IMG/VR virus record: IMGVR_UViG_2931680285_000001
Coordinates: 31,011 to 95,010 of that record
DNA from: a virus
Taxonomy: Duplodnaviria > Caudoviricetes
Strand: one strand, 5' to 3'
DNA length: 64,000 nucleotides
Part shown: one piece after another, positions 10,330 through 52,309 of the stretch
Position numbering within the stretch: the first letter of the stretch is position 1
Layout of the letters: each line of letters begins with the position of its first letter
Translations under genes and position numbers: made by a program
Notes under the pieces: model-generated
Told to the model about the DNA's origin: nothing
Seen by the model: only the letters and a program-made list of their open reading frames with translations
The model's database searches: none

Positions 10330-10335
10330 CCGCGC

Positions 10336-13300: not shown

Positions 13301-16300
13301 GCGATCTCGTCAAGGAGTTCCGCGAGCTCCAGAAGAACCGCAACCTGACATCCGGAGCCGAGCGCGAGGCCCTGGAGGAGCGCCGGCGGGCCATCTTCGA
13401 CGAGCAGAACCGTCGCGGTGCGAAGGGCCACGAGGAGACCGTGCGGCGTGCCGAGACCCGCGAAGACCCGCTGAACGCGCACTACAACATCTCGGTCCGG
13501 GTCGACGGCAACTCTTACGGCGAGGTCTCGTACCACGAAACCGGCTCCACCTGGGCAGGCGGCCCCAAGGCCGGATGGAACGCGAAGACCGACCGGTACG
13601 GGGGCGGCCTGGGCTCCTTCCCGAGCATGGTCGAGGCCCTGGCCGCGCTCGTCGAGAACTACGACACCGACCCCAACACCGAGCCGGTCCGCCTGTACGG
13701 CCGGACCCACCAGGTATGGGTGCCGAAGATGTTCTTCGAGCTGTACCAGTCCTCCCGGCGCGCGGACTCCTTCCCGTCAGCGACCAAGGAACGCCAGACC
13801 CTCTACGGCCGGTTCAAGGGGCACGGCTACGGATGGTCGGACCGCACCAATCCGATCACCGGGAAGATCGGCAAGGGCGCCGTCCTGGAGATCCCTGAGG
13901 GACTGCTCGCCGAGTTCCAGCGGGTCACCGAGGAACTGTCCCGGGAAATGATGCTGCGGTCCACCGACCGCGAGCTGGACTCGTCGGACCGTTCCAAGGC
14001 CCGTACTCGACTGGCCGCGATCAACGCGGCGCTGCACGGCATCGACGCCGCGCGCACGAATGTACGAAAGGATGGCGGGGACGACGACCGCAAGGTCATC
14101 TCCGCCAAGGAGATCGAGGCGCAGCAGGCAGCCCTGCGCGCCGCACTGAGTACGGATGAGAGGGCTGAGGATGAGCATCTACAGCCAGGTGGCCAGGGAC
14201 CACTGGACGAAGCATCTGCCCAGGGAACTGGCGCAGATGGCCGACCCGGAGAAGTTCTTCCTGAGCAAGGGCAGGGAGATCGAGACGGCGATTCTGGTGG
14301 CCGAGGAGGCGCTGGAGAAGACCGTGCCGGCGGCGACGGAGTACGAGCAGCGGGCGGGTCAGCTCAGGCAGATCAGGGCGACCGCGACCGAGATGGTGCT
14401 GCGGGACCTGCTGCCGGAGCCCGAGCCGGAGACCGAGGAGCTGCCGACCCTCACGCCGGAGATGCGGGATCTGCTGGCGATGAAGGACGAGGTGTACGAC
14501 ATGTAGGCCGGTTCCGGCCGGACCCGGCCGACGCCGCGACCCGCGGGCCCGTTCAGCGTGCTGCCGCGAACGTCGAGGCGATCCGGGTCCTGAAGCGGCT
14601 GGAGCAGGAGAACCGTCCGGCCACCGAGCAGGAGAAGCGCACCCTCGCCCGCTGGAGCGGCTGGGGCTCGGTTCCGATCATGTTCGCGTCGGAGCCGAAC
14701 GAGAAGGAGCCGCGCTACCAGCAGGGTGGCGCGCGCTTCGGGAAGTTCACGCAGGACCACGCCCGCTGGGCGGAGTACACCGACCTGCGGGCCATGCTCT
14801 CGAACGAGCTGACGCCGCTGGAGTGGCAGCAGGCTCGACGCGGCACGCTGTCCATGCACTACACGCCTCAGGGCATCGCCGAGGCCATGTGGGACGGCCT
14901 CAAGGCCCTCGGGTTCGAGCGCGGCGACGTTCTGGAGGCCGGGTCCGGGTCGGGCACGTTCTTCGGTGTCTCCCCGCAGGACGCCCGCCTCACGGGCGTC
15001 GAGCTCGATCCGACCACGGCACGGATCGCGAAGGCGATCTACCCGGACGTCAACGTCCTGAACGAGAACTTCGCCGAGACGGACGCCCCGGCCGGAACCT
15101 TCGACGCGTCCATCGGCAACGTGCCCTTCGCCGCTGTCCCCTTCGGCGATAAGCGCTACCCGTCCGAGTCCCTGCACAACGGCTTCGTCACCAAGGAACT
15201 GGCACTGACCCGCCCCGGCGGCGTCACGCTCCTCATCACCTCGCGCCACACCCTGGACTCCAAGGGCGACAAGGCCCGCAAGCAGATCGCGAAGTACGGC
15301 GACCTCATTGGCGCCGTCCGCCTGCCGTCCGGCGTCTTCAGCGACGCCGGCACCAGCGTGGTCGCCGACGTCCTCGTCCTGCGTCGCCGTGCCGACGGCC
15401 AGGAGCCGGGAGACACCTCCTGGCTGAACGCGCCCGAGCGGAAGGTCGGGGACACCCGAGAGCACGTCAACGCCTACTTCGCTCAGCACCCTGAGCACAT
15501 CCTGGGCGACCTCACCACCGAGTCGTCGCCGTACGGCCCGCGCCTGACCGTCAAGGGCGATCCGGGCAAGGCGGCCGACCAACTCCGCGACGCCCTTCGC
15601 GACATCGCCGAGAAGGCCAAGGAGGACGGCCGCGGCTACGAGCCGCACCCCGACGGAGACGACCGCCTTCCCATCCACCTCCAGACCGCCCGCGAGAAGC
15701 ACGCCAACGACTGGACCGGCCGCCTCTACGAAGGCGACGACGGCCAGCTCTACCAGCACGTCAACGGCGGCAACCCCGTCGTAGTCGAGCCGTCCGACGG
15801 CCAGGCCGACCAACTCCGGGCCCTGATGCAGCTCCGCGACGTCGCCGCCGAACTGCGTGTCCTGGACCGCAAGCGGGAGGAGGACGAGCGGGCCGAGAAG
15901 CTGCGTGCCCAGCTTCGCGACCTGCACACCTCGTACGTGCAGCAGTACGGGCCGCTGTCCAAGCCGGGCCAGTTCCGCAGCATGAAGACCGGCGTCCGAG
16001 AGGACGGCACGGAGGAGCGCACCCCGACCGCCTGGGGCTACTTCCGCTCCGACCCCGACGCCGGGTCGGTCCTCGCACTGGAGCGCTGGGACGCGGACAA
16101 GCAGGAGCCGGTCCTCTCCCGCGTCTTCACCGAGCGGGCCGCCGCCCGTCGGCAGCCGCTCGACCAGACCGACGACCCGAAGACCGCCCTGTCCGCGGTC
16201 GTCGCCGCCACCGGCGAGGTCGACCTCGGCGAGATCGCCCGCCTGCTGAACACCGACCCGCAGGACGCCCTGCGGGCCCTGGGCACCGAGGTCTTCACCG

Positions 16301-28354: not shown

Positions 28355-30283
28355 GTGCCGACCGCGCCCGCGCCCCGCGCGCCTGCGTCACGTAAGGGCA
28401 TCTGCCGCGCCATTTTCGCCGTGACCGGAGTCGTCGACGAGGTCGCCGACTTGATCGTTCCGGGAGCTTTCGCGCACACCCTGGCGACCAGACCTGTGAA
28501 AACGGTTTGGCACCACGCGTGGACGGACCCCATCGGCGTGGTTCTGGAGATCACCGAGTGGCGACCGGGCGATGCGCGGTTCGCCTCGATTCCGAACTGG
28601 CCGGCGGAGGCCGGGGCGCTGGTCGCGACCATCCAGTTCAACCTGAGGACCCAGCGGGGCCGCGACGTCTACGAGCAGGTCCGCCAGTGGCACGAGCACG
28701 GCGAAGCCCAGTTCAGCATCGGCTACCGCGTGCCCCCGAGCGGAGCCACGAAGCGGTCGGACGGGGTTCGGGTGATCCACAAGCTCGACCTCTACGAGGT
28801 CTCCCCCGTCCTTCATGGCGCGCACCCGATGACCCGGTCCTTGGAGGTCAAGGCCGATGGTGGCGCCACGGAGTTGGAGCACAAGACGACAGCGGGCGGG
28901 CACCTCGACTTCAAGGCCGCCGAGCGGCAGGTTGGTCGCGGGGCGATGGTCGCGCTGTACGTGCCTGGCGAGATCGCGGGCAGGATCGCCCACCCGGACG
29001 GCACCTTTGCACGGGACCTGCACATCACGCTGGCCTATCTCGGCGACGCCGAGCGGCTTCCCGGCCACCCTGACGACCTCGCCGACCTCGTGGCCGCAGC
29101 CCTTGAAGGCGCGAGCCCCGTGGAGGGGAAGATCGGGGGGATCGGCCGGTTCCCGGACACGGGCGACGGCGAGCCGGTCTTCGTGCCGGTCGACGTGCCG
29201 GGGTTGGCGTCGCTGCGCCAGCGGATCGTGGACGCGATCGAGTCGTCCCCGCTCGCTTCCTCGCTGAACGTCGACCACGACTTCACGCCGCACATCACGC
29301 TCGGGTACGGCCTGCCGCTGGACACCGTGCCCACCCCGTCCATCCCGGTCGCCTTCGACACCGTGCACGTCGTACGAGGACCGGACTCGACTCCCATCCG
29401 CTTGCTCGGCCCTCTCACTGCCGATGCTCACACCGAGCCGACCGTGACAGAGCCACGTTTCGCCTCTCCGGCCCCAGCTGAGGAGAAGTCCGCGCACCAG
29501 GCCGTCCGCCAGGCTCTGGCTGCGCCCCGCTGGGCCCGCGCGAGCGCCCACGCCGCCGTCCTCGAAGCCAAGTCCCGTATCCCCACAGGAGTTCCCGTGT
29601 CGCCTCTCCAGCCTCTTCCCGCCTCCTACGAGGACATCCGCGAGCAGGTCAGCGATGCCGTCCACGGCCTGCTCGCCTCTGAGGACGGCACCTGGTGCTG
29701 CGTCGAGGCGACCTACCCGGACCGGGTCATCGTCTCCGTCCACCAGGGTGACTCGGGCGCTCGAACCTACGCCGTCCCGTACAGCATGTCCGGCACGGAG
29801 ATAGCCCTCGAAACGCCCCAGCCCGTCGCGCTGGCCACCGTGGTGATCCCCGACGAGGGATCGGTACGCCCTGCCGACAGCGCCGAGACAGCCGACAGCC
29901 TCCTCGTCCGCCCCACCCTGCGCGCGCTCGCGGAGGCGACCTCCCGCGTCCAGGCCGCGGACGCCTCTGAGCAACTGGAGCCCGTACGGGCCTCGGTGAG
30001 CAGCCTCCTCAGCGCCCTGTCCGCCAAGGGCCTCGACCTCACCGCCGAGGACGATGAGGAAGGCCCTGTCGGGGAACGGCTCCCCGCCAGCGGCTCGGCA
30101 GCCGTGGCCGGCAACGGCATCGACCTGTGGGACGACCCATACGACGAACCTCACGATGTCGACGAGGACGAGGACGAGTCCGAGAACGGCGACAACGCCG
30201 AGGAAGAGGTCGACGAGATGGGCGCGACCGTTCATCTCGACGCGACAGAGGTAAAGGCGCGCCTGGCCGCGATCCAGCTCTAG
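28355..30283 (+). CDS. HK97-type prohead protease fused to 2H phosphoesterase (2'-5' RNA ligase/Acb1-like) domain and acidic C-terminus
   Basis: VDEVADLIVPGAF, VWHH, PIG, FSIGY, LYEVSPV; two HxT motifs LHITLAYLG (29021) and FTPHITLGY (29291). Confidence 0.85.
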   Translation: MPTAPAPRAPASRKGICRAIFAVTGVVDEVADLIVPGAFAHTLATRPVKTVWHHAWTDPIGVVLEITEWRPGDARFASIPNWPAEAGALVATIQFNLRTQRGRDVYEQVRQWHEHGEAQFSIGYRVPPSGATKRSDGVRVIHKLDLYEVSPVLHGAHPMTRSLEVKADGGATELEHKTTAGGHLDFKAAERQVGRGAMVALYVPGEIAGRIAHPDGTFARDLHITLAYLGDAERLPGHPDDLADLVAAALEGASPVEGKIGGIGRFPDTGDGEPVFVPVDVPGLASLRQRIVDAIESSPLASSLNVDHDFTPHITLGYGLPLDTVPTPSIPVAFDTVHVVRGPDSTPIRLLGPLTADAHTEPTVTEPRFASPAPAEEKSAHQAVRQALAAPRWARASAHAAVLEAKSRIPTGVPVSPLQPLPASYEDIREQVSDAVHGLLASEDGTWCCVEATYPDRVIVSVHQGDSGARTYAVPYSMSGTEIALETPQPVALATVVIPDEGSVRPADSAETADSLLVRPTLRALAEATSRVQAADASEQLEPVRASVSSLLSALSAKGLDLTAEDDEEGPVGERLPASGSAAVAGNGIDLWDDPYDEPHDVDEDEDESENGDNAEEEVDEMGATVHLDATEVKARLAAIQL

Positions 30284-39302: not shown

Positions 39303-39592
39303 GGCGCCTGACCGTCCTGGTCGACGGCCTCCCCGAGGACTCCCGCACCCGATCCGGCCCGATCGACGGCTGGACCAAGGAGACCGAACTCCTCGCGCAG
39401 CTGATCGAAGAGGTCAGCATCCTGGCGGCCGACCGGCGACGAGCAGAGCCGACGTCCATCCCTCGCCCGTACAACCCTGCCGACACCGCCTCGAAGCGGG
39501 CCGGCAGCCCGCCGCAGCAGTCCTCCCCGGGCACGGGGCACAAGACGATGCTCGCGGCGGCGATGCAGAGAGGTATGGTCCGCAGTGCCTGA
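39170..39592 (+). CDS. Tail assembly chaperone -1 frameshift extension (gpGT-like; full CDS 38784-39592)
   Basis: G GGA AAG at 39170-39176; -1 frame reads LLRDRWGDVESDLARFYRID...LPEDSRT...W. Confidence 0.8.
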   Translation, partial: GKVLRAGQLLRDRWGDVESDLARFYRIDARGIWREPGEPGFLGLRRLTVLVDGLPEDSRTRSGPIDGWTKETELLAQLIEEVSILAADRRRAEPTSIPRPYNPADTASKRAGSPPQQSSPGTGHKTMLAAAMQRGMVRSA

Positions 39593-42500
39593 GGGCCTTC
39601 AGGCTGGCCGCCTGGACGTGCCGGTCGTCGCCGACCTCAACGGCTTCGCCCGCACGCTGCGCAGAAAGGTCGAGGCCGCCGCCGAAGGCTTGGCCGTCAA
39701 GGTCAAGATCAAGGTCGACGCCAAGCACCTCCGCAGGAAGCTCGACGACGCCGTCAAGGAGGCGTCGAAGGGGCTCTCCGCGAAGGTCAAGGTCAAGCTC
39801 GACGACCGGCGGCTTCGCGCCGAGCTGGACACCATCGTCCAGCAGGTCGGCGACACCGACGTCCGCGTCCCGGTCACCGCCGACGACGAAGCGGACGGCG
39901 GGCGTCGGGGCGGCCTGCTGGACCGAATCCGCGCGCTGATCCAGGGTGCGCAAGGGGAGGCCGACCGCACCCCGGTCGACGTACCGGTCCAGATGCGGAT
40001 GCCGCGTGGCCGGGGTTCACTGCGGACGCTGCTCTTCGGCTCCCTCCTTTCCGTCGCTCAGCCCGCAGTGGCCGCGCTGGGCCAGTACGCGGCGGGACTG
40101 ACCGCGCTGGTCTCGGCCGCCGCGCCGGCCGTCGGCGTCCTTGGGGCACTCCCCGGCCTCATCACCGCAACCGGCACAGCGGCTATCGGCACGGTGGTGG
40201 CCTTCAAGGGCTTTGGGGAGGCCCTGAAGCAGACCTTCAAGGCCCAGCAGCAGGCAGCGGCCGACGGCAAGGTCACCGAGGCCCAGCAGAAGGCCCTGGA
40301 GCAGGCTCTCGACGGCTTGTCGGGCTCCGCCCGCAAGTCAGTCTCAGCCGTCGCGTCCCTGAGCGGCGCTTGGCGCGAAATGCGCCAATCAGTGCAGGAA
40401 CGTTTCTTCTCGCAGATCTCGGACGAGATCAAGCCCCTGTCGAGCTCGGTGCTCCCACTGCTGAAGTCCGCGCTCGGCGACAGCGCAGGGCAGATGGGCA
40501 ACCTGGCCAAGCGCGGTGCCGAGTTCATGCAGTCGGGTCCGTTCCGCGCCGACTTCAAGAAGATCGCCTCAAGCAACAGCACCGTGGTCGGCCACATGGC
40601 CGACAGCCTCGCGAACCTCGGCCGCGCCGGCGTCGACCTCCTCGTCACCGCGGGTCCGCTCACCGAGTGGGTGGGCGACGGCATCGAGTCGCTGACCGCG
40701 CACGCGCGAGCGTCCGTTCAGGCCGGTCGCGAGACAGGGGCGCTGGCACGCTTCTTCGACAACGCGCGGGAGAAGTCGGCACAGCTCGGCCGCTCGACCT
40801 GGAACCTGGTCAAGGGCCTGGGCGGCGTCGGCAGGGCCGCGCAGGACACCGGCAACGCTCTCCTCGATGGCTTCGAGGGCACCACCCTGCGCTTCAGGAG
40901 GTGGGCGAACTCGGCCAAGGGCCAGCTGTCGATGAAGCAGTTCTTCAGCGACGCCGCCCCCACGTTCCACGAACTCAACCGCCTGGTCGCCGACTTCGTA
41001 CGGGGCCTGGGGCGCGCCGCGAAGGACAACGGCGTCACGGACCTCATCCGGCAGATCCGTGTCGAGCTGATGCCGGCCCTGGGCACCTTCTTCGACTCGC
41101 TCGGCCAGTCGATCGGGCCCGCAGTGATCAGCCTGGTCTCGAACCTGGCCACCGCGATCGGGAACTTGTCGTCCGCCGGGACTGGCCTCGGCGTTCTCCT
41201 CATGGCCTTCAACGGCCTGCTCCACGCATTCAATGCGCTCACCGATGCCTTCCCCCTGCTGAACACGGGCCTCGCCGTCCTCCTGGGCACGGTGCTCGCG
41301 CTCAAGGTCATCTCCGGTGTCACGAGCATGCTGAGAGGTTTCGGCACGTCCGTCCTGGCGGCCGCGCAGTCCGCTGCTTCGCTGGGCACGGTCATGCGAG
41401 GGACGCCCGGTGCTGTCGGGCCGTCGGTGACCTTGTGGCAGCGGATGGGAGCCGCGTACCGCACCGCCTCCGCCGACGGCGGTCGCCTGACCGGAACGCT
41501 GCGCGGCATCGGCGCGGCGAACCGGGTCGCCTCCACCGCCATCGGCGGCATGACCTCCGCACTCGGCGGCCCCCTCGGCATCGCGATAGCCGGTGTGACG
41601 ATCGGGCTTGGACTGCTCGCGGCGAAGCAGGAGGCCGCTGCCCGTGCGGCAGCCGCGCACGAAGAGCGGATCAGCTCCCTGGCGCAGGCCCTCGCGGACT
41701 CCAACGGCCAGATCGACGCGAACGTCCGCGCTCAGGCGGCGCAGTACCTCCAGGACGTGAAGCTGTCCGACGGCAAGGGCAAGCTCGTCGACACCCTCCG
41801 CTCGGCCGACGTCACCCTCAAGCAGGTCACCGACGCCTACCTCGACCAGGGCGGCTCGATCGAGGGCCTGGAGACGAAGCTGCGCGGCCTGGCCAAGGAG
41901 ACCGAGCACTACGTGTCGATGGGTCCCAAGGCCGACGTCCTGAAGATGACCCCCCAGGGCGAGAGGTACCAGGCCGCGGCCGACGCCCTGAAGGGCATGA
42001 GCGGTGAACTGGACAAGTCGAAGGCCAAGGCCAAGGAACTGAACGAAGCCGTCAACGGGACGGCGAGCACCGGTTCATCCGCCTACGACAGGCTCCAGTC
42101 CGCCGTCCAGGGCTACAGCGACAAGACGAAGAGCGCCGACGAGCGCACCGCCAGCCTGCGCCGCGCGCTCGACGCCCTCAACGGCAACGCGCAGAGCTTC
42201 CACGACGCCTCCGCGCAGCTCAACTCGGTGATGCTCCAGATCGACGAGACGATGAAGGGCAACATCGACCGCGCCGAAGGGTGGGGCGCGGCCCTCGTCG
42301 ACAACGACGGTCTGGTGAACACCAGCACCCGCAACGGTCAGACCCTCAACTCCCAGCTCACCGAACTGCGCGACTCGATGCTCGCCGTCGCAACCCGCGC
42401 TCAGGAGGCGTCCGAGCAGGGCATGATGCCCATGTCCGAGGCGATGGACAAGAGCCAGGCAGCCATGGAGCGCGCCCGCGCCAAGGCCATCCAGCTCGCT

Positions 42501-43625
42501 ATGGACATGAACGTCCCCGAGGCTCAGGCGAAGGCCCTCGCGGACCAGATGGGTCTGGTGCCCGAGACCATCACCACGCTGATGACCACCAAGGGCATCC
42601 CGGAGTCCACCGCTCAGATCCTCGGGCTGCGCTCGAAGCTCGAAAGCCTCGGTGCCGGCAAGTCGATCACGGTCAAGGCGCCGACCGCGGAGGCCCGTAA
42701 GCAGCTCGAACTCCTTGGGTTCTCCGTGCAGAACATGCCTGGCGGGAAGAACGTGCGGATCACCGCACCGACGAAGGGCGCCCGTGCCGACATCGGGGCG
42801 CTGGCCACGGACATCGCGAACGCCCCGAACAGGAAGAACGTGACGGTCAACGCGATCATCACGAAGGCGACCGGCGACCTCACCGCGATCCGGAACAAGG
42901 TCGCCGAACTGCCGCCCGGCAAGAAGCTGGTGATGGAGGCACCGACCGCGACGGCACAGCAGATGATCAAGGACCTGGGGTTCAAGGTCCGGGACCTCAA
43001 GGGCAAGAAGGTCGAGATCAGCGCGCCCACGGGGTCGGCGGTCTCGAACGTCGAGGCTATCCAGCGGAAGATCAACAGCCTCACCGGCAAGACGGTGAAC
43101 GTGACCGTGAAGTATTCGACGATGGGCAAGCCGTACGTCTCCGAGCACGCGGACGGCGGGATCGTGAAGTACGCCAACGGCGGCATCCGGCTGCTCGGTA
43201 ACCGCATCAAGGCGTTCTCGAACGGCAGCGAACGGCACGTCGCGCAGATCGCTCGCGCGGGCGAGATGCGGCTATGGGCGGAGCCGGAGACTTACCCCGG
43301 CGAGGCGTACATCCCCCTGGCGCCGTCGAAGCGAAAGCGCTCGGAAGAGATCTTGGGCACGGTGGCCGGGTACTTCGGCGGCACGGTGGTCTACCCCGGT
43401 CGGAACACCCAGCAGTTCGCGGACGGCGCGGTGCGGCTCCACCAGTCCGCCCGGCCCGCTCCCGCCGCTCGCGCCACGTCCTCCGCCGGCCCCGCACCTG
43501 CGCTCGTCGGCGGAGACCTGAACCTGACCATGACGAACGGGGCCACCACCCCGGGAGAGGCGCTGAACGACGCGCTCTTCGAGCTGCGCCGGATCAGGCG
43601 AGGAGGTGCGTATGCCTCCGGCTGA
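39585..43625 (+). CDS. Tape measure protein
   Basis: 1346 aa Ala/Gly/Leu-rich helical; C-terminal ADGG...WAEPET..EAYIPL. Confidence 0.9.
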   Translation: MPEGLQAGRLDVPVVADLNGFARTLRRKVEAAAEGLAVKVKIKVDAKHLRRKLDDAVKEASKGLSAKVKVKLDDRRLRAELDTIVQQVGDTDVRVPVTADDEADGGRRGGLLDRIRALIQGAQGEADRTPVDVPVQMRMPRGRGSLRTLLFGSLLSVAQPAVAALGQYAAGLTALVSAAAPAVGVLGALPGLITATGTAAIGTVVAFKGFGEALKQTFKAQQQAAADGKVTEAQQKALEQALDGLSGSARKSVSAVASLSGAWREMRQSVQERFFSQISDEIKPLSSSVLPLLKSALGDSAGQMGNLAKRGAEFMQSGPFRADFKKIASSNSTVVGHMADSLANLGRAGVDLLVTAGPLTEWVGDGIESLTAHARASVQAGRETGALARFFDNAREKSAQLGRSTWNLVKGLGGVGRAAQDTGNALLDGFEGTTLRFRRWANSAKGQLSMKQFFSDAAPTFHELNRLVADFVRGLGRAAKDNGVTDLIRQIRVELMPALGTFFDSLGQSIGPAVISLVSNLATAIGNLSSAGTGLGVLLMAFNGLLHAFNALTDAFPLLNTGLAVLLGTVLALKVISGVTSMLRGFGTSVLAAAQSAASLGTVMRGTPGAVGPSVTLWQRMGAAYRTASADGGRLTGTLRGIGAANRVASTAIGGMTSALGGPLGIAIAGVTIGLGLLAAKQEAAARAAAAHEERISSLAQALADSNGQIDANVRAQAAQYLQDVKLSDGKGKLVDTLRSADVTLKQVTDAYLDQGGSIEGLETKLRGLAKETEHYVSMGPKADVLKMTPQGERYQAAADALKGMSGELDKSKAKAKELNEAVNGTASTGSSAYDRLQSAVQGYSDKTKSADERTASLRRALDALNGNAQSFHDASAQLNSVMLQIDETMKGNIDRAEGWGAALVDNDGLVNTSTRNGQTLNSQLTELRDSMLAVATRAQEASEQGMMPMSEAMDKSQAAMERARAKAIQLAMDMNVPEAQAKALADQMGLVPETITTLMTTKGIPESTAQILGLRSKLESLGAGKSITVKAPTAEARKQLELLGFSVQNMPGGKNVRITAPTKGARADIGALATDIANAPNRKNVTVNAIITKATGDLTAIRNKVAELPPGKKLVMEAPTATAQQMIKDLGFKVRDLKGKKVEISAPTGSAVSNVEAIQRKINSLTGKTVNVTVKYSTMGKPYVSEHADGGIVKYANGGIRLLGNRIKAFSNGSERHVAQIARAGEMRLWAEPETYPGEAYIPLAPSKRKRSEEILGTVAGYFGGTVVYPGRNTQQFADGAVRLHQSARPAPAARATSSAGPAPALVGGDLNLTMTNGATTPGEALNDALFELRRIRRGGAYASG

Positions 43626-44639: not shown

Positions 44640-45617
44640 GTGGCGTGGGATTCCGTGCCGTGGTTCACCGAAGGCGGCGCCGAGCACTCCAGCGAAGTGG
44701 CTAGGCTGCTGGCCTACGCCGCATTCGCCGGCGGGGAGGGCATCGTCGGTTCGGGTGACCTTCAGGTCCGGGCGCTCTCGTCGCCCGCGGCTGCGGTGAA
44801 CGTCTACCCGGGGGCGTGCGCGATCCTAAACAGGGCGCCGGGCGGCCGGTATCAGGCGTACGCCGCGCGTCTCCCGAGCGCGGACCAGGTGCCGGTTGCC
44901 GCGACCGGCGCAGCCAAACGCTCCGATCTGGTGGTGGCCCGGATCGAGAACCCGTATTCGGCCGGAGAGACGTGGCCGCTGCCCGGAGACCCAACGGTCG
45001 GCCCGTACATCTACACCCGGATCGTCTCGAACGTTCCAGCGACGACCACGAGCGTCCGGCAAGTCCGTCCCAACGACTCGTCGATCACCCTCGCTCGCAT
45101 CGACATCCCCGCGAACACGTCCTCCATCACCCAGGCGATGATCAAGGACCTGCGCGAGATGGTGGCTCCCCGCGCTCGGCGACGTCTCTACACGTCCTCG
45201 CCGAGCGGAGACCAGAACTGGGCCGGCAACAGCAAGGGACAGTGGGTCGCGTGGCCGCCGGCCGCCCGCTGGACGGTCGAGGTGCCGCCCTGGGCGACGA
45301 AAGCCCGGATCATGCTCACGGTCGCGGGGGTGCAGGTGATGCGCGGCGGCGTATGGGGCTCGTCGGCGTGGAAGCTCGGCTCGCTCCAGGGCGAGTCGGT
45401 CACGCTCGACACCGGCGCCGGAGACGGCTCCCAGCGCATCCACCTGATCTCGGCTGACACCATCTCCATCCCCTCGTCCATGAGGGGAACGGTCCAGACC
45501 CTGTCCGGGATGATCTCGCTCGACGACGACAACGCTGGCGTCTTGCAGGCCGACGTCGCCACGACCTGTGTGCTCGACGTCGACTGGGCGGAGGACCCGA
45601 CCGAGGACGAAACCTGA
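44640..45617 (+). CDS. minor tail protein
   Basis: RSDLVVARIENP, LARIDIPANTSSITQAMIKDLR pattern seen in actinophage minor tail proteins. Confidence 0.75.
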   Translation: MAWDSVPWFTEGGAEHSSEVARLLAYAAFAGGEGIVGSGDLQVRALSSPAAAVNVYPGACAILNRAPGGRYQAYAARLPSADQVPVAATGAAKRSDLVVARIENPYSAGETWPLPGDPTVGPYIYTRIVSNVPATTTSVRQVRPNDSSITLARIDIPANTSSITQAMIKDLREMVAPRARRRLYTSSPSGDQNWAGNSKGQWVAWPPAARWTVEVPPWATKARIMLTVAGVQVMRGGVWGSSAWKLGSLQGESVTLDTGAGDGSQRIHLISADTISIPSSMRGTVQTLSGMISLDDDNAGVLQADVATTCVLDVDWAEDPTEDET

Positions 45618-46813
45618 TGGCCTGGCGGTACATCGCGCAGCGCGCGCTGCCGGAGGCGATCCTCGACTGGGATGTGCCCCTCAGCCTGTCCTCGAACCCG
45701 AGGAGAGAGCTGTCCGGCCCCGGTTCGCTCACCGGCACCATCGAGCCGGAGTACGCCCGAATGCGAGGTGCGGACGGGCAGCCGATCCTCCAGGAATGGG
45801 CGACGAAGCTGTACCTCGAAGTCGACGGGCATATCCGCTGGGGCGGCATCGTCACGAAGACGAGCTACGAAGGCTCGAAGGCAACCATCCAGGCCGAAGG
45901 GCTGTCCTGCTACCCGCACGGCATCCCGTACGAGAGCTACATGATCTCCGGGCAGCTCATCACCCCGAAAGACCCTTTTGCCGGAAAAGATAAAAACCAT
46001 GACGGCTGGGTCGACGGCAAGAAAGGAACCCAACGCGTTCCTCCGCCACCAAAGCCCTATGGCGGTCCGCGAATTGACGCATTCGACGCCTTCCGGAACA
46101 TCTGGGCGCACGTCCAAAGCCGCCCGTACGGGAACATCGGCCTCACCATCGACCAGCACGACCACGGCGAGAAACTCGGTGCCGCAGACGGAAGTTCACC
46201 GTGGGAGCTGGCGTGGTGGGACAACCCCGACTGCGGCTCCACGCTCGACACCCTCACTCGCACCATCCCCTTTGACTGGCGCGAGGACCATTCCTGGGCC
46301 ACCTCGGACGGCAACGAGATCTCACACCGCCTCCGCCTCGGCCGACCCCGCCTCGGCGGGAAGCGGCACGACCTGCGGTTCGCCGGCGACGAGAACATAG
46401 TCGCCATCGCCCGGCCGGAAGGCATGGGAGACGACTACGCCAACGAAGTCGTAGTCCTAGGCCGCGGTGAGGGTCGCAAGATGGCCCGCGCGCAGATCGC
46501 GCGTTTCGACGGACGACTCCGCCGAGTCACCACGGTCACCGACAAGACGCTGGTCTCCCCCACCGCGCTCCGCCGACGGGGCGAACTGGAGCTTGCTGGA
46601 CGGACAAAGGCCCTTCAGATTCCGTCCATCCAGATCGTCGACCACCCCAACGCGAGGTTCGGCTCCTGGGCACTCGGTGACGACATCCGCGTGCAGGTCC
46701 ACGTCCCCTGGGTCGGTGACCTCGACGTCTGGCACCGGATCGTCGCCGACGAGATCAGCGCCGACGGCACCGTCACCTTGACCCTCCGCCGTTCCGACTC
46801 CTTCCACTACTGA
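45617..46813 (+). CDS. minor tail / hub protein (Gp37-like)
   Basis: LSGPGSL, IRWGGIV, YANEVVVLGRGEG, LGDDIRV. Confidence 0.75.
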   Translation: MAWRYIAQRALPEAILDWDVPLSLSSNPRRELSGPGSLTGTIEPEYARMRGADGQPILQEWATKLYLEVDGHIRWGGIVTKTSYEGSKATIQAEGLSCYPHGIPYESYMISGQLITPKDPFAGKDKNHDGWVDGKKGTQRVPPPPKPYGGPRIDAFDAFRNIWAHVQSRPYGNIGLTIDQHDHGEKLGAADGSSPWELAWWDNPDCGSTLDTLTRTIPFDWREDHSWATSDGNEISHRLRLGRPRLGGKRHDLRFAGDENIVAIARPEGMGDDYANEVVVLGRGEGRKMARAQIARFDGRLRRVTTVTDKTLVSPTALRRRGELELAGRTKALQIPSIQIVDHPNARFGSWALGDDIRVQVHVPWVGDLDVWHRIVADEISADGTVTLTLRRSDSFHY

Positions 46814-48312
46814 GTTCCAACGACCTCCGGCACCCTCTGGTCCAGCGCGTCTCGGACGAGGCCGCGCAGCCGCCTCCTCTCCGCCTCCACCCGAGCCCTC
46901 TGCTCGTGGTTCAAGAGGCTGTTCCGCGCCATCAGGACGTCGTCGATCTCGACGAGGAGAGCTTCCCGTAGATCGACGAGGGCCCCGGCGCGGTCTTCGG
47001 TGAGCACCACCTCCGCCCACTCTCCCGACAGGTCGCGCAGGAGCGCGGGCGCGTGCGGCCTGCCTGTAACCCTCGCGTGCAGCTCAGCCAACTCGGACCT
47101 GACCCTGGCGACGCCGCTCGCCATCTTGTCCAAAACGGCCCGCTCCTCCACGCGAGCGAGCTCACCGGCAACGCCGAGCGGCGCGTGCTGGACATGGACC
47201 CCTTGGAGAAGGGACTTCTTCGGGTCGGTGTGGGTGACGTGCGCGAGGGTCGCGGTGACCACTTGCTCAGGCAAGAGGACTCCGCGTTCGCACGCTGCCA
47301 GGACATGGTCGAGAGCCGCGCAGTGCCCGAAGTTGGTGAGCAGTTTGGCCGCCGCCCCGACACGCTCGCTGCCGTGAGATGCCACAACGCTGACGGGGAA
47401 CAGCTTCCCCGGTTTCATGGACCTCCCGGGCTTCTGCTGTCGAATCCAGGCGGTCATGGGGTCGATCTCGGCAATTTCGTCCCAGGTCCTCTGGACTGAC
47501 CGGTCTCCTGGGTAGAACCCGACCTTGCGCACGGCGCCGTCCGGTCCGGGGAAGAGTCGGACACGGCGGCTGGGCCAGGTGAGCAGATCCAAGCGCCCCG
47601 TGATCGGCCGCGCAGCGTGCGCGGGACCAGGGCTGGGCCGCTCCCAGGCTGGCGTGTCGCCGGGTGTCCGGGGAGCAGGCGGCAGCGAGAGCAGCAGCAT
47701 GTCCTTGACCGTGCCGGAAATCGTGAAGTGCGCGTGGGTGACCTGCGCGAGCATCCCCACCCGGTTTCCGGCCTTCCCGCGCGGGTCGTCGGGATGCGGG
47801 GTCTTCATGCCGGCGACGTCGTACCCGAGCATGACGAGGGCGGCGAGGAAGGCGTGGACGGGGGTCATGGGCGGGTGCTCGTCCACACCTCGCGCGAGTC
47901 GCCCATCGAAGAAGCCGCCCCCGCGTCCATAGCGGGAGATGTTGAGCACGCCGACGCTTTGAGTCGGTCGGGTCACGGCAGCGCACTGGAGGAACGGGTA
48001 CTCCGGGTGGAAGACGTCGAACCTGTCCTGCCACTGCTCGAAGTAGGCCAGGATGGGCGCGGTGTCCAAGGCGGGTGCCGTCCAGGCCCGATCCCACTGC
48101 GCCGTCGTGGTCGGTCCGGCGGCAGCGTCGTAGAGGGCAGCGATCAGCCGGAAGACGACCACTCCTTCCAGACCGCTGTGGGCGAGGTGAAGTTCCTCGG
48201 CCCGGTCGAACAGCTCGATCAGTCCGACCTCGCGAGCCTCGCCCGACCGCAGGTCCATCACGCTGATCCAAGGGTGAGTAAGCAGGTCCAGTTCCTGCCG
48301 TCCGCCGGTCAT
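46807..48312 (-). CDS. cas8e: Type I-E Cascade large subunit Cas8e (Cse1/CasA), orphan
   Basis: DLLTHPWISV, VGLIELF, FRLIAAL, DRFDVFHPEYPFLQ, YDVAGMKT..DDPR, LLLSL, DTPAWER, RLDLLTWPSRRVRL, DPMTAW: ordered actinobacterial Cse1 motifs. Confidence 0.88.
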   Translation of the reverse strand: MTGGRQELDLLTHPWISVMDLRSGEAREVGLIELFDRAEELHLAHSGLEGVVVFRLIAALYDAAAGPTTTAQWDRAWTAPALDTAPILAYFEQWQDRFDVFHPEYPFLQCAAVTRPTQSVGVLNISRYGRGGGFFDGRLARGVDEHPPMTPVHAFLAALVMLGYDVAGMKTPHPDDPRGKAGNRVGMLAQVTHAHFTISGTVKDMLLLSLPPAPRTPGDTPAWERPSPGPAHAARPITGRLDLLTWPSRRVRLFPGPDGAVRKVGFYPGDRSVQRTWDEIAEIDPMTAWIRQQKPGRSMKPGKLFPVSVVASHGSERVGAAAKLLTNFGHCAALDHVLAACERGVLLPEQVVTATLAHVTHTDPKKSLLQGVHVQHAPLGVAGELARVEERAVLDKMASGVARVRSELAELHARVTGRPHAPALLRDLSGEWAEVVLTEDRAGALVDLREALLVEIDDVLMARNSLLNHEQRARVEAERRRLRGLVRDALDQRVPEVVGTQ

Positions 48313-48638
48313 CCGTTCACATCCGCTTCCTGGTCCTCCAGGTCACGACGCTCGGCCAGGACGCGCTCGATGCCCTCCTCGGCCTCCGCGCGTAGGTGCT
48401 CCAGGACGTGCTCCTGGCTGAAGTTCTCGTCGAGGGCGTTCCACTGGGCTTCCACGCCGTCATCGGCGGAAGCCCCCAGCAGATCGACCAGGGCCTCCTG
48501 GCGGAGCACGATATTGGCGTGCCCTGCGTGAGCCGCAGGGCCGACGGTCAGACGTTCGTCCTCGTCGACGTAGAGCACAGGATCTTCTGCTGGCGAAGCG
48601 ACAAGAGCCGCGAGAGCCGCAATCGTGAGCTTGGGCAT
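48309..48638 (-). CDS. small highly acidic protein (109 aa), coupled to cas8e
   Basis: GGGAGG RBS; MPKLTIAAL...; ATGA overlap with cas8e start. Confidence 0.75.
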   Translation of the reverse strand: MPKLTIAALAALVASPAEDPVLYVDEDERLTVGPAAHAGHANIVLRQEALVDLLGASADDGVEAQWNALDENFSQEHVLEHLRAEAEEGIERVLAERRDLEDQEADVNG

Positions 48639-48715
48639 CGTGTGGGTGGTTCCTCCCTCTGCGGTGGGCGACGCACCACGAACTGGGGCATCGACAGGCC
48701 GCCTGGGCATCCACC

Positions 48716-48771
48716 AGGCGCATCCCCACACACGCGGGGAGCAGCAGAATCCCCGCGTGCGCGGGGAGGAA
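48716..48771 (-). CRISPR. two abutting type I-E CRISPR-like repeats with no spacer
   Basis: minus strand TTCCTCCCCGCGCACGCGGGGATTCTG (48771-48745) then CTGCTCCCCGCGTGTGTGGGGATGCGCCT (48744-48716); 27-nt period; 7-bp stems with 4-nt loops. Confidence 0.75.
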
Positions 48772-48862
48772 TCACAAGCCGATCGTACGGCCAAGGCCAG
48801 GTCGTGCGCCAGGAATCCGGATCGCCATCACCCCATGGGGACGCTGCCGCCCCAGGGCCGAC

Positions 48863-48894
48863 ACGCGACGCTAAGAACACCTCCTGTGCATGGT
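48863..48894 (+). promoter_or_regulatory. bipartite promoter-like motif copy
   Basis: ACGCGACGCTAA-N14-CATGGT, ATG 7 nt later. Confidence 0.7.
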
Positions 48895-48901
48895 CCGCAG
48901 C

Positions 48902-51900
48902 ATGGTGAAGATCCTCGACCCCGGGCCTGGTGGAGACCTGGCACGGCTCCTTGCCTCGTACGACAAGCGGCTCCAGGCGCTGGAACGGACGTCGCAGGCC
49001 GCGTACTCCTCCATCGAGGGCGGCTCGATGGACATCTACGACGAGACCGGCGAGCTGCGCGGCTCGGTCGGCGTCCAGCCAGACGGCGGCGTCGCCCTGG
49101 TCGCCGTGAACACCCCGCCGCCGCCGACCCCGACGCCCCCGTCGGTGGAGCCGGTCCTCGCCGGACTCGTCGTCGGGTGGGACGGCCAGTGGGACGACTC
49201 CTACACCACCCCGACGGACTTCTCGCTCGTCCAGGTCCACATCGGACCGTCGCCTGACTTCCTCCCGGACCTGAGTACCCACGTCGCGACGATCACGGCG
49301 CCCCTCGGCGGTACCGTCACCATCGCAGTCGACGGCTACACCCCTGTGTGGGTGCGGCTGATGGCAGCGAATACGGCGACGACCACAGGCCCGGCATCAG
49401 CGGCCGTGCAGGGAACCCCTCGACAGGCCGTCGAGCAGGACCTGATCGACGGCATCGTCACCGAGACGAAGCTGGCCCGGGACGCGGTCACCGAGACGAA
49501 GATCGCGCTGGGAGCGGTCGGGGCCACTGCTCTGGCGGCCGGCGCTGTTCTGGAGGACAAGCTCGCCAAGGCCGCCGTCACCCTGGACAAGATCGCCAAG
49601 GGTGCGGTGACCATGAACGCCTTGGGCGGGTCACTCGCCGACGGCGTGACCCAGAGGTACGTCGACGCGATGGCCGACCCCGCGGCGTGGCAGGTCCTCA
49701 ACCAGGCACCCGGAGCCCAGTTCGAGCACCTGCCCCTGGCGGATGCTCCGACGGGCCAGAGCGTCGGCCGCGCGACCGGGTACCTGGTGGTTCGCGGCAC
49801 CGTGCAGATCCCGTACGACCCCGATGTCCTGTACCGGATATCCGCCAGGGCCCGCACCACCAGCGGCTCAGCATCGGGCACCGACGCCCTGTACGTGGGC
49901 GCGCTCGGCATCGCCGCCGACGGAGTCACCCTCGTTTCCCGCCACGGGGCCAATACGTACAGCTCAGCCCACTACGTAGCCGCCTCGAACACGGTCCAAC
50001 CCGTCGGGGGTAACTGGACCACCTACATCGGCTACCTGCGTGGACGCGCGGCTCCCGACGGCCTCGGAACGCCTGGCGTCGCAGCCGATCCGCGTGCCCC
50101 TGGCGTTGTGCACGACGCCGTACGGTTCATCTCGCCGATCCTGTACCTGAACTACGGCAGCGGACAGTCCAGCGCCAGCGGCGTGATGGAGCTCGACGCC
50201 GTCACGGTCGAAGTCCTCAAGACCGGCGTGGTGGACTCGACGAACCTGGTCGTCGGATCGGTGACGACGGCAGCACTCGCCACCGATGCGGTCACGGCCG
50301 GGAAGATCGCTGCGGACGCGATCGGGGCCCGGGAGATCCAGGCCGGTGCCGTCACCGCCTTCGAATTGGCTGCCGGGTCCGTCTCTGCCGAGAAGCTGAC
50401 CGCGCTCGCCGTGACCGCCGACAAGATCGCGGCCAACGCGGTGACGGCCGAAAAGCTGACCGCCTTGTCGGTGACGGCCGAAAAGCTGGCTGCCCTGTCG
50501 GTGACGGCCGAGAAGATCGCGGCGTTGTCGGTGACGTCGGACAAGCTGGCCGCGAACTCGGTGGTGGCCTCCAAGATCTCTGCGGGCGCGATCGAAGCCA
50601 CCCACGTCAAGGCCGGAGCACTCACGGCCGATCGGCTCGCGCTCGGTGCTGACGGGAACATCATCGCCGACCCGGGCTTCGAGGGCGCCGTCACCGATCA
50701 GCGTGTGGCCACGGCCGCGAACTGGTCGATCACGACGGGGAACAACTCGCCGCGCGCCGTTAGGGTCGACGCGATCAGCGCGACCGCCGCTACCCGGGCG
50801 CTCACGCTTGCCGACCTGCCCGCGGTCCCCAACCAGCGGATGTGGTTCGGCGTCGACTATCTCGCCTCCGCCGACTGGGCCGGGTCCAGGATCAGCATCT
50901 ACGCCGAATGGCTCGGCGCAGATAGCGCGGTCATCGGCACGAGCGTCGTGACCACAGGCGACGGTGCCGCCGTACGCGGCACGTGGCAGCGCCTCACAGG
51001 AGTACCCGCAGAGGCCGCGCCTGCGAACACGACCCGGGTCCGCATCCGTATCGCGTCCGTCTCAGGGACAGCCGGTGGTGTCGCCTTCGACAACGTCTCC
51101 GCCCGCGTCGTGGTCTCCAGCGGAGCGGCTGGAGCTCGCGCGGAACTCTCTCCGCAGGGCCTTCAACTCTTCGACGACGCAGGCGACGAGGCCGTCGCCC
51201 TCATGACGGGTCGGCCCAACTACCTGTCGCTGTCCAACGGTGGCGTCGCTGTGGCCACGATCGACGAGACCGGCAACGCAGGATTCGGTGACCTCGCCGT
51301 GGCCGGCAAGCTCACCATCGGCGGTGACCCGATCGAACAGCACCTGACCCTGGGAGCCCGAGGCCTCGTCGCAATCGACTACCAGGCGAGCGCCGTCTCT
51401 GCCAGCACTACGGACTACGGCTTCGTGGAGCTCGCCTTCGAAGCCGAGGGCCCTCGCATGTACCGGGTGGTACTCGACTGCTACGCCGACCCGAGCGTGG
51501 CCGGCGGTGAACTCGTCCTCACGTTGCGGGATGGCGGCGCCTCGACGCCAACGATCTCGTCGAACCAGATCCAGTCCGCGATCTACCCCATCGCGGGGGC
51601 CGGGTATCACCGTGTTCGTCTGGAGACCGTCCGGTCCGGCTGGTCATTCGGTGTCGGACTGCGGCGGCTGCTCACCACGTTTCGTGTCCAGTCCGGCCCG
51701 GCGGGGCAGACCGTCCGGCTGTTCGGTGGCTCGAACCACCCGGGGGTCTTCTACATAGAGGACGTCGGACCGTACATCCCGGAGACCGGCCAGTACAACA
51801 CGGGCGGCGGCACGGCCACTCCTCCGGTTCAGCGGTACGTCAAGACGTACCCGGCCACGTGGTCGGGGTCCTACGCCAACCGCAGCTCGTACAACAGCTA

Positions 51901-52309
51901 CTACGGCAACAAAGCCATGCAGGGCTACTACAGCTCCACCAACGGAATGCAATCGAGCCTCATCGGCTTCTCCTCCGCGCTCGCCACGGATCTGACCGGC
52001 GCCACGATCAACAAAGCGGAGATTTACCTCTATTTCGACCATTGGTACAGCAACGCGGGTGGCAAGGCGGTCATCAAGGCCCACAAGCACACCAGCCGTC
52101 CGTCAACGTTCTCCTGCGACGCCGAGGCCATGACCGTCGACTGGGGCAAGAACGTCGGCAAATGGGTGGATATAACCGGCGTGTTCGACAGCACGAGCTG
52201 GCGAGGTATCGCCCTCGACCCCAACAACTCCAGCACCACGTACTACGGCCGCGCCCGCGGCTACGGCGAGACCTACCCGCCTCAACTGCGGGTCACCTAC
52301 ACCAAGTGA
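48902..52309 (+). CDS. tail fiber / host-specificity protein
   Basis: N-terminal FN3-like region, 10-aa VTAEKLAALS repeats, carbohydrate-binding-like domains, C-terminal PQLRVTY. Confidence 0.8.
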   Translation: MVKILDPGPGGDLARLLASYDKRLQALERTSQAAYSSIEGGSMDIYDETGELRGSVGVQPDGGVALVAVNTPPPPTPTPPSVEPVLAGLVVGWDGQWDDSYTTPTDFSLVQVHIGPSPDFLPDLSTHVATITAPLGGTVTIAVDGYTPVWVRLMAANTATTTGPASAAVQGTPRQAVEQDLIDGIVTETKLARDAVTETKIALGAVGATALAAGAVLEDKLAKAAVTLDKIAKGAVTMNALGGSLADGVTQRYVDAMADPAAWQVLNQAPGAQFEHLPLADAPTGQSVGRATGYLVVRGTVQIPYDPDVLYRISARARTTSGSASGTDALYVGALGIAADGVTLVSRHGANTYSSAHYVAASNTVQPVGGNWTTYIGYLRGRAAPDGLGTPGVAADPRAPGVVHDAVRFISPILYLNYGSGQSSASGVMELDAVTVEVLKTGVVDSTNLVVGSVTTAALATDAVTAGKIAADAIGAREIQAGAVTAFELAAGSVSAEKLTALAVTADKIAANAVTAEKLTALSVTAEKLAALSVTAEKIAALSVTSDKLAANSVVASKISAGAIEATHVKAGALTADRLALGADGNIIADPGFEGAVTDQRVATAANWSITTGNNSPRAVRVDAISATAATRALTLADLPAVPNQRMWFGVDYLASADWAGSRISIYAEWLGADSAVIGTSVVTTGDGAAVRGTWQRLTGVPAEAAPANTTRVRIRIASVSGTAGGVAFDNVSARVVVSSGAAGARAELSPQGLQLFDDAGDEAVALMTGRPNYLSLSNGGVAVATIDETGNAGFGDLAVAGKLTIGGDPIEQHLTLGARGLVAIDYQASAVSASTTDYGFVELAFEAEGPRMYRVVLDCYADPSVAGGELVLTLRDGGASTPTISSNQIQSAIYPIAGAGYHRVRLETVRSGWSFGVGLRRLLTTFRVQSGPAGQTVRLFGGSNHPGVFYIEDVGPYIPETGQYNTGGGTATPPVQRYVKTYPATWSGSYANRSSYNSYYGNKAMQGYYSSTNGMQSSLIGFSSALATDLTGATINKAEIYLYFDHWYSNAGGKAVIKAHKHTSRPSTFSCDAEAMTVDWGKNVGKWVDITGVFDSTSWRGIALDPNNSSTTYYGRARGYGETYPPQLRVTYTK
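50260..50640 (+). repeat. 30-bp (10-aa) tandem coding repeats
   Basis: GTGACGGCCGA(A/G)AAG repeated at 30-nt period. Confidence 0.8.

Follow-up and report, generated by a model that had tools for sequence, protein, structure and literature searches.

What is a single gene for the large subunit of Cascade, the effector complex of type I-E CRISPR systems, doing between two tail genes of a bacteriophage? The question is raised by a 64-kb stretch of DNA, hereafter the window, taken from the virus record IMGVR_UViG_2931680285_000001. A prophage fills nearly all of the window, and among its tail genes lies a cassette that comprises two hairpins resembling I-E repeats, a gene for a small acidic protein (orf109) and a gene for a homologue of the CRISPR-associated (Cas) protein Cas8e, also called Cse1. 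We propose, with a probability of roughly one half, that the cassette is a phage counter-defence moron against type I-E CRISPR-Cas. The positions of all features are collected in Table 1.

Identity of the solo Cas8e

The initial annotation of this DNA had assigned the 501-aa open reading frame (ORF) to Cse1/Cas8e, and both profile hidden Markov models (HMMs) and the predicted structure bear this out. The Pfam family CRISPR_Cse1 (PF09481) matched with an E-value of 1.1e-43 (150.5 bits against a cut-off of 24.7), residues 9-297 aligning to profile positions 1-275 of 450. TIGR02547 (casA_cse1) scored 80.4 bits against a cut-off of 70.05, so that both curated thresholds were exceeded, and four Cas8e models of PADLOC matched the same frame. 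All of these matches are confined to residues 9 to about 300, and the HMMs do not detect the C-terminal 200 residues. The most strongly conserved of the Cse1 residues are retained, and the N-terminal domain matches canonical Cas8e by sequence as well as by HMM.

An AlphaFold2 model built from 43 sequences was obtained with high confidence scores (pLDDT, the predicted local distance difference test, 91.1; pTM, the predicted template modelling score, 0.91). The model ends in four long helices (residues 388-416, 429-437, 441-461 and 469-490). When it was compared with the PDB using Foldseek, 23 matches were returned at E<=0.001, every one of them a Cse1 or Cascade entry, and the best (4h3t, 3wvo and 4an8) aligned over both domains with template modelling (TM) scores of 0.73-0.76 across approximately 520-570 alignment columns. 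A loop around residues 131-140 (GRGGGFFDG) is modelled with low confidence and holds a Phe that is nearly invariant across the family. Profiles and model together indicate a real, full-length Cas8e/Cse1 with an N-terminal globular domain and a C-terminal four-helix bundle. The earlier impression that the C-terminal third is divergent holds for the sequence, in which no HMM match was obtained, but not for the predicted fold, which is that of a normal Cse1 helical bundle.

Insertion site and genomic context

The window belongs to contig C5 of a host genome of 8.75 Mb (99.99% complete) whose relatives are Streptomyces. All structural genes of the prophage are on the plus strand, and the cassette between 46813 and 48890 is on the minus strand. 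On one side a minor tail protein gene converges on the cas8e stop codon with an overlap of 7 nt, and on the other side a tail or tail-fibre gene is divergent from the cassette. Homologues of both tail genes are present, at 72-76% nucleotide identity, in related prophages of two other genomes, G013 (L078) and G022 (L079), and there only about 47-65 nt separate them. This short spacer contains the motif CGCGAC(G/A)(C/T)TAA, which in the window is found just upstream of the start of the fibre gene. Because the tail genes are adjacent in two related prophages, the approximately 2.05 kb between them in the window is a moron, recently inserted in the phage. In the order of the transcript, the cassette consists of two hairpins, a third hairpin, a GGGAGG site, orf109 and the 501-aa cas8e. 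The two I-E-like repeats, the 109-aa acidic ORF and the Cas8e had been described as lying antisense between tail genes, and each of these parts was found again at its position on re-reading and in the searches.

No other cas gene had been recognised in the window at first reading, and this holds for the whole genome as well. With 15 Streptomyces Cas reference proteins as queries, tblastn found only this cas8e in the window and in the complete genome, and whole-genome Pfam searches for Cse1, Cas7e, Cas6e, Cas1, Cas5, Cse2 and Cas3_HD returned only this gene. The neighbours expected of a cas8e in an operon (cse2, cas7e, cas5e, cas6e and cas3) accordingly do not accompany it in the window or elsewhere in the genome, and array-like clustering of repeat cores was not seen in the host genome.

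Relatives of the solo Cas8e

A word-indexed protein search returned 17 proteins, of which P0002 (50% identity) and P0003 (51%) are the nearest, followed by a group near 40%. No relative was found in the viral collections, neither among INPHARED phages (tblastn) nor in IMG/VR. Searches of genomes, plasmids and the genus added 12 further solo loci (L002-L009, L014-L016 and L054), with short surrounding DNA in the case of L004, L007 and L015. Other cas genes were absent from all 13 solo loci, window included, when these were searched by tblastn with the 15 reference proteins. Three of the solo copies are on plasmids in PLSDB, namely pSCL3 of S. clavuligerus and plasmids of S. anulatus and S. californicus, and the neighbours of the L003 copy are a helicase, an Mrr-type nuclease, ParA/ParB, DUF2637 and TcpC.

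In a quick maximum-likelihood tree (IQ-TREE), 14 solo proteins and two Cas8e of operons without Cas3 formed one clade (SH-aLRT 100, branch length 1.16), set apart from 27 other Cas8e, 11 of which come from loci confirmed as canonical. The window protein groups with P0002 and P0003, and belongs to a clade of solo Cas8e found on Streptomyces plasmids and plasmid-like elements. Cas-derived anti-CRISPR (Acr) proteins of viruses are recognised as orphan cas homologues on mobile elements in clades apart from the operon copies, and the tree shows this same arrangement here, in a clade that also holds Cas8e of Cas3-less operons. The solo clade has conserved residues of its own, and many of these are common to the proteins of the Cas3-less operons. 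Canonical Cas8e assembles into Cascade, reads the protospacer-adjacent motif (PAM) by elements that are named in a review (PMC6546366), and recruits Cas3. Compared with canonical Cas8e/Cse1 (4h3t, 3wvo, 4an8 and 5u07), the window protein has the same fold of both domains and a recognisable N-terminal domain, but it differs in being encoded alone, in a genome without Cse2, Cas7, Cas5, Cas6 or Cas3, in its long branch and in the C-terminal residues that escape the HMMs.

The relatives are not decayed operon remnants, a concern raised with the initial annotation. They are intact solo genes on plasmids or similar elements, with 35-50% identity and pairwise ratios of nonsynonymous to synonymous substitutions (dN/dS, NG86) of 0.27, 0.375 and 0.60, which are rough values from few pairs of high-GC genes. 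The extension that follows the Cas8e-like part in plasmid copies (Table 1) contains a motif of approximately 45 aa, AFG..TL..LA.HP.C.V.Y.TLR.R...G...EEAATTP, in one or more copies (about three in P0003 by eye), and this extension matched no Pfam family and nothing in the protein atlas.

In a genus sample of 401 genomes, 94 had any Cas8e match, the genome of the window included. Solo copies were carried by six (G000, G027, G061, G138, G189 and G357), and only G027 also had a canonical-type match. Separately, in many Streptomyces genomes Cas8e matches were located within open frames of approximately 1050-1800 aa (for example G353:C2, G288:C8 and G002:C1), which is consistent with Cas3-Cas8e fusions.

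Cas3-less plasmid operons

Operons of the composition Cas8e-Cse2-Cas7-Cas5-Cas6, without Cas3, Cas1 and Cas2, were identified at three loci (L010, L017 and L018). Those of L017 and L018 have ParB and a protein with DUF3440 as neighbours; cas6e has no annotation in either and seems to be split in L018. The two complete plasmids that carry such operons yielded no I-E array. Their Cas8e are the nearest relatives of the solo copies, with 34-42% identity as against approximately 30-35% to canonical proteins, and they have clade-specific residues in common with the solo copies as well as carriage on mobile elements. Unlike the solo loci, these operons retain the rest of Cascade, and they are without the orf109 family and without repeat matches. 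The I-E CRISPR-associated transposon (CAST) of Streptomyces (10.1101/2024.11.13.623437) was rejected as an account of the Cas3-less relatives, since CAST keeps Cas3 and TnsBC.

The small partner protein

The TGA stop codon of orf109 overlaps the ATG of cas8e as ATGA, and this overlap suggests that orf109 is translationally coupled to cas8e. The protein matched no family of Pfam, NCBIfam or PADLOC, and a protein atlas search with it returned only unnamed small actinobacterial clusters. A profile search over 1.84 billion representatives identified 51 proteins at E<=0.001, most of them 82-111 aa long. In an alignment of 50 rows (orf109 and 49 of those proteins) two rows matched Pfam, each marginally and to domains of unknown function. 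By these searches orf109 is a member of a small-protein family of actinobacteria and phages for which Pfam has no family. Its model (pLDDT 84.6) consists of a small alpha/beta unit and a long C-terminal helix. No Foldseek match to the pdb set was obtained at E<=0.001; the best pdb_via_wide match (VIA) had a Z of 4.2 and the best BFVD match an E-value of 0.023. The possibility that orf109 is a Cas11/Cse2 was rejected, as hhalign of the family against a Cse2 alignment gave a probability of 0.5% and no Pfam match was found.

An iterated search revealed an orf109-family domain directly upstream of the solo cas8e in six of the 13 loci (the window, L002, L003, L005, L014 and L054), and in three of these six the domain is the C-terminal part of a 230-340-aa protein. 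Consecutive accessions would place further family members beside P0003 and its cluster member P0072, and the equal size (2399 nt) of two contigs hints at a pairing with P0002. In the genus sample the family was found at 20 places in 19 genomes, four of them adjoining a solo cas8e and the other 16 without a cas8e nearby. The neighbours of family genes without cas8e are unrelated enzymes or hypothetical proteins.

Repeat-like hairpins in the leader

The whole window was scanned, filters being off, using a covariance model derived from 10 I-E repeats of five actinobacterial arrays. Of its 52 matches, repeat 2 and repeat 1 of the cassette ranked highest, and the next unrelated match scored 14.2 bits. 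Repeat 2 has the layout CTGCT-stem-ATGcgCC, with a stem (48739-48724) that holds one G:U pair; the repeat of a Streptomyces plasmid array, for comparison, reads CTGCTCCCCGCACCCGCGGGGATGGTCC. In repeat 1 the match (48766-48749) covers the hairpin only, and the flanks are unlike the repeat consensus. The hairpins resemble the I-E repeat in both sequence and hairpin, the property that characterises Racrs. The stems are 27 nt apart from start to start, and because just 11 nt separate them there is no spacer between the repeats, as the initial annotation had stated. A fuzzy repeat pattern applied to both strands of the whole genome found 13 sites with <=4 substitutions and 91 with 5, both copies of the window included.

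The region 46000-49500 was also searched with Rfam at E<=10, and only chance matches (mir-622 and ctRNA_p42d) were obtained, with no CRISPR-DR family among them. The 33 nt that follow repeat 2 gave no convincing protospacer match in 26 canonical I-E loci (short matches of 8-14 nt only) or in the own genome. With no spacer-like segment and no target match for these 33 nt, a CRISPR RNA (crRNA)-like regulatory RNA of the Cracr type, whose segment between repeats should be complementary to a cas promoter or a CreT-type target, was rejected.

Recurrence at other loci

I-E-like repeats (model E <= ~0.002) were present near the solo cas8e in four of the 13 loci, namely the window, L004, L008 and L054. 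Two matches in L004 (22.2 and 16 bits) lie 54 nt apart with a 25-nt interval, 1.3 kb upstream of the cas8e-like gene and on the same strand, and the single match in L008 (28.9 bits) lies on the opposite strand, 5 kb upstream of the cas8e-like gene. In L054, matches of 24.3 and 17.7 bits and a third copy seen by eye form units of approximately 65 nt (11091-11250) that start 99 nt after the cas8e stop. The stems of these units, CTCCGC/GCGGAG, represent a compensatory change from CCCCGC/GCGGGG, and the two intervening stretches are alike. Further matches in this locus scored 30.1 and 16.9 bits, the former being a near-complete I-E repeat at 12212-12240, 1.1 kb further on.

A scan of 97 kb of loci with the repeat model was intended as a control. 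The only matches at E<0.03 were in L062 (27.5 bits), L058 (22.8 bits) and L063 (17.9 bits), each 50-190 nt upstream of an orf109-family gene and on the same strand, with no cas gene within approximately 8 kb. In L062 and in L008 the match is a nearly complete I-E repeat. The same arrangement was found in an isolated Streptomyces phage, Gilgamesh, whose gp106 (MN234216.1, L091 2375-2767) is a 91-aa member of the orf109 family. A repeat match of 24.4 bits (E 1.5e-4) is located approximately 90 nt upstream of gp106, in a 220-nt intergenic leader that follows gp107. A phage search with orf109 itself gave no match, and gp106 was found only with the family member P0030. The leaders of L058 and Gilgamesh have the layout of the window, with two hairpins, TTCT coming after the first and ATGCGCC after the second; the hairpin spacing is 42-47 nt in these leaders versus 27 in the window.

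Judged from these loci, I-E-like leader hairpins with an orf109-family gene are a module that recurs in phages and other variable regions, and an orf109-family gene with a solo cas8e is a second pairing that recurs, the window combining both. The synteny of repeat, ORF and cas8e that the initial annotation had suggested to look for elsewhere was therefore recovered in its two pairings, but with all three parts together only in the window. The pairing of repeat and small ORF fits a locus of the Racr/acr type.

Two observations concern the Gilgamesh-like module in genome G067. The gp106 protein is by eye approximately 80% identical to the protein of L058 (G067), and this locus may be a prophage related to Gilgamesh. 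In the same genome, a homologue of DpdA, which belongs to a system for 7-deazapurine in DNA, is encoded 2.3 kb from the repeat and orf109-family module (L088 10587-11951, minus strand).

Proposed function

A counter-defence role against type I-E systems is favoured because separate lines of comparative evidence tie each of the three parts of the cassette to I-E components, because the insertion in the phage is recent and because two kinds of counter-defence of this sort have already been published. The cassette would be expressed as one minus-strand transcript. Its leader hairpins could act in the manner of a Racr, being bound or cut by Cas6e of the host and thereby titrating Cas6e and Cas7e off real crRNAs, and they might also tie the expression of the downstream genes to the I-E machinery of the host. 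The product of orf109 may be a protein anti-CRISPR, or else a partner of the viral Cas8e. The solo Cas8e, finally, would occupy the place of the large subunit in host Cascade and give rise to a defective complex. The defect would probably be in the recruitment of Cas3, as the relationship of the clade to Cas8e of operons without Cas3 suggests. The analysis shows the identity and fold of the Cas8e, the likeness of the hairpins to I-E repeats, the insertion of the cassette and the recurrence of its two pairings on other mobile elements, and from these we infer each step of action, from Cas6e binding over Cascade entry and loss of Cas3 recruitment to inhibition.

A number of observations weigh against this proposal. 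The lysogen has no I-E system and is therefore without a target for the proposed inhibitor, and there is no enrichment of solo copies with the supposed target, since one of the six carriers has a canonical Cas8e as compared with 94 of 401 genomes with any match. A simple subunit swap is opposed by the position of the solo clade nearest to Cas8e of Cas3-less plasmid operons, by its low identity of approximately 30% to canonical Streptomyces Cas8e, because of which the fit into host Cascade is unproven, and by the C-terminal extension. Of the 12 other solo loci, 11 have this extension, which is absent from L006 and from the window protein. Moreover, 44 of 97 columns conserved among canonical proteins are changed or relaxed in the solo clade, the other 53 being kept. 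A different part of the L004 extension has a homologue in L089, a stand-alone protein with HTH_23/HTH_17 matches, and this homology points to DNA binding and perhaps another role. As for orf109, neither its sequence nor its model appears to resemble a known fold or family, and the dN/dS of two family pairs (0.75 and 1.03) is compatible with weak constraint.

Points against the proposal come from the RNA as well. In the predicted minimum-energy fold, repeat 1 pairs with repeat 2 to form one 16-17-bp hairpin; the loop GCAC is complementary to the loop GUGU. This alternative fold would hide the Cas6e-type hairpins. With the covariance model, no comparable repeats were found in nine of the 13 solo loci or in any of the three loci with Cas3-less operons. 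Furthermore, a consensus scan, in which the settings were not adapted to Streptomyces, detected neither a sigma-70-type promoter nor a terminator (0 and 0 sites).

Alternative explanations

Among the alternatives, exaptation outside CRISPR survives best, and we regard it as possible although unlikely. The Cas8e-like protein and orf109 would then form a free-standing DNA-binding or regulatory module of mobile elements with a role in maintenance, exclusion or some other defence, and the hairpins would be an ordinary cis-acting RNA in the orf109 leader, for example an attenuator, a stabiliser or a site for RNase III. Such a module would be in line with the fact that most carriers are without a canonical I-E system, with the extension of 11 of the 12 other solo copies and the homology of another part of it to the HTH_23/HTH_17 stand-alone protein, with neighbours such as ParA/ParB, an Mrr-type nuclease and helicases, and with the finding that, of the 20 places where the orf109 family occurs in the genus sample, 16 have no cas8e nearby. 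The ability of the two hairpins to form one long duplex also suits it (z -3.06, with none of 200 shuffles folding as well). However, the likeness of repeat 2 to the I-E repeat extends beyond the hairpin into its flanks (CTGCT before the stem and ATG..CC after it), near-complete I-E repeats occur in L062 and L008 (27.5 and 28.9 bits), and the Cas8e fold is complete, with the most strongly conserved of the Cse1 residues kept.

Distinctly unlikely, in our view, is a hijack of Cascade for the benefit of the element. The large subunit of the element, together with crRNA-like RNAs at some loci, would turn Cas5, Cas6, Cas7 and Cas11 of the host to a new use, as a DNA-binding complex that is blind to Cas3 and works for the element (silencing genes of the host or of rival elements, for instance), as in the Cas3-less plasmid operons. 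The grouping of the solo clade with Cas8e of operons that lack Cas3, Cas1 and Cas2, and the two such plasmids on which no I-E array was found, speak for this explanation, as do the mini-array that closely follows the solo cas8e of L054, with its compensatory stems and units of approximately 65 nt, and the two L004 repeats with their 25-nt interval. In the window, however, the two repeats leave no spacer, and the 33 nt after repeat 2 identified no target in the loci and genome searched; the spacer-like stretches of L054 resemble each other, so that this array looks like a tandem duplication.

Quite improbable is the more elaborate scheme of a dedicated system for swapping the large subunit, carried by Streptomyces mobile elements, in which a solo Cas8e derived from Cas3-free plasmid Cascades makes host Cascade Cas3-blind or re-aimed and the leader hairpins serve as a switch operated by Cas6e. 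With such a switch, orf109 and Cas8e would be made, or their mRNA stabilised, only in hosts that express the I-E machinery. If this were true, it would constitute a host-sensing counter-defence distinct from steric Acr proteins.

An inert remnant, in which a fragment of a cas operon and array was acquired by the phage and is in decay, would explain the single cas gene and the repeats that are degenerate in comparison with array repeats (21-25 bits against the model from true repeats), but it is extremely doubtful in view of the intact 501-aa ORF with a model pLDDT of 91.1, the clade of intact solo genes across 35-50% identity with dN/dS <1, the conserved partner gene with translational coupling and a ribosome-binding site, and the homologous leader in phage Gilgamesh.

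Relation to known systems

The proposed counter-defence role has precedents both for the proteins and for the RNA. In Katz et al. (10.1101/2023.06.24.545427), homologues of Cas5 and Cas8b are described as acting as Acrs, 358 orphan viral cas genes are counted, and the entry of Cas homologues into Cascade as defective subunits is already in print; AcrIB3 is a Cas5 homologue and AcrIB4 a homologue of the C-terminal domain of Cas8b that matches its last 90 residues. The solo cas8e is similar to them in being a cas gene of a (pro)phage outside any CRISPR-Cas locus, in forming a clade apart from the operon copies and in the faulty subunit proposed. It differs from AcrIB3 and AcrIB4 in being of type I-E and full length, with both domains, and in belonging to a clade that is also present on plasmids, coupled to a conserved small partner and to repeat mimics, and known from sequence.

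Racrs, which are RNA anti-CRISPRs or solitary repeat units, imitate repeats and are clustered with acr genes (Camara-Wilpert et al. 2023, PMC10651486). The window hairpins are likewise repeat look-alikes in a viral genome, beside candidate anti-CRISPR genes and without a spacer. They differ in that two hairpins in tandem lie within the 5' leader of an operon that encodes proteins, and not in a stand-alone small RNA gene, in that the two can pair with each other, and in that Cas6e binding is here predicted. Cracrs, as presented by Liu et al. (10.1101/2024.10.29.618823), require a spacer-like part of 21-24 nt that matches a cas promoter. They share with the window a unit similar to the I-E repeat that is carried by a phage, is arrayed in some cases and is encoded together with Acr proteins, and are set apart from it by the window repeats, which leave no spacer and for which no target match was found.

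Nothing was found in the literature on solo Cas8e genes of mobile elements, although supplementary tables, e.g. Table S3 of 10.1101/2023.06.24.545427, may list such genes; the main text of that paper does not mention I-E, Cse1 or Streptomyces. New here are a conserved mobile-element clade of full-length solo Cas8e, linked to a partner family and to repeat-mimic RNA elements, and the occurrence of the module of repeat and small gene in an isolated Streptomyces phage as well.

Type I-E systems of Streptomyces are in use as endogenous genome-editing tools. If its function were confirmed, the cassette would provide the first inhibitors for the Streptomyces I-E systems used in this way, the orf109 family would be a new candidate AcrIE family, and the solo Cas8e would be a natural case of replacement of the Cascade large subunit.

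Further features of the prophage

Table 1. Positions of the cassette, the surrounding prophage genes and related features at other loci
Feature	Position	Strand	Remarks
Repeat 1, I-E-like hairpin, CCCCGCGCACGCGGGG	48749..48771 (stem 48766-48751)	-	covariance 21.1 bits, E 0.0017, model positions 6-23 only
Repeat 2, full-length I-E-like, CTGCT-CCCCGCGTGTGTGGGG-ATGCGCCT	48716..48744	-	covariance 25.4 bits, E 9.2e-5, model positions 1-29
Third hairpin, CGCCTGG-N7-CCAGGCG	48700..48720	-	directly 3' of repeat 2
Ribosome-binding site, GGGAGG	48652..48657	-	13 nt before the orf109 ATG, read from the sequence
orf109, 109-aa small acidic protein	48309..48638	-	isoelectric point 4.19; 25 D/E vs 7 K/R
Solo Cas8e/Cse1 homologue, 501 aa	46807..48312	-	PF09481, TIGR02547, PADLOC, AlphaFold2, Foldseek
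Inserted cassette (moron)	46814..48860, ~2.05 kb	-	between two tail genes; right-hand boundary approximate
Flanking minor tail protein gene	45617..46813	+	phrog_1885, E 5.9e-63
Flanking tail or tail-fibre gene	48890..52309	+	phrog_38009, E 1.7e-36; phrog_892, E 1.5e-31; divergent from cassette
Portal	7536-10046	+	prophage
ORF of 5436 aa	10336-26646	+	between portal and protease; good codon bias, G+C at third codon positions (GC3) 0.88
Prohead protease, capsid, then tape measure and minor tail proteins	tape measure 39585-43625; minor tail proteins up to 46813	+	
Replication genes and endolysin	from 62960		prophage
Cas8e-Cse2-Cas7-Cas5-Cas6 operon, L017 (NZ_CP117710.1)	8995-13608		without Cas3, Cas1, Cas2
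Cas8e-Cse2-Cas7-Cas5-Cas6 operon, L018 (NZ_CP023976.1)	8995-13708		without Cas3, Cas1, Cas2
Cas8e-Cse2-Cas7-Cas5-Cas6 operon, L010	7583-12309		without Cas3, Cas1, Cas2
Extension-bearing cas8e-like C-termini	P0003-P0008; L002-L005, L007-L009, L014-L016, L054		

The head module of the prophage contains a further protein of unusual composition. In a 642-aa protein encoded at 28355-30283 on the plus strand, residues 17-174 are similar to a head maturation protease and residues 188-345 to PHROG families labelled 'RNA ligase', and by these similarities the protein is a fusion within the head module.

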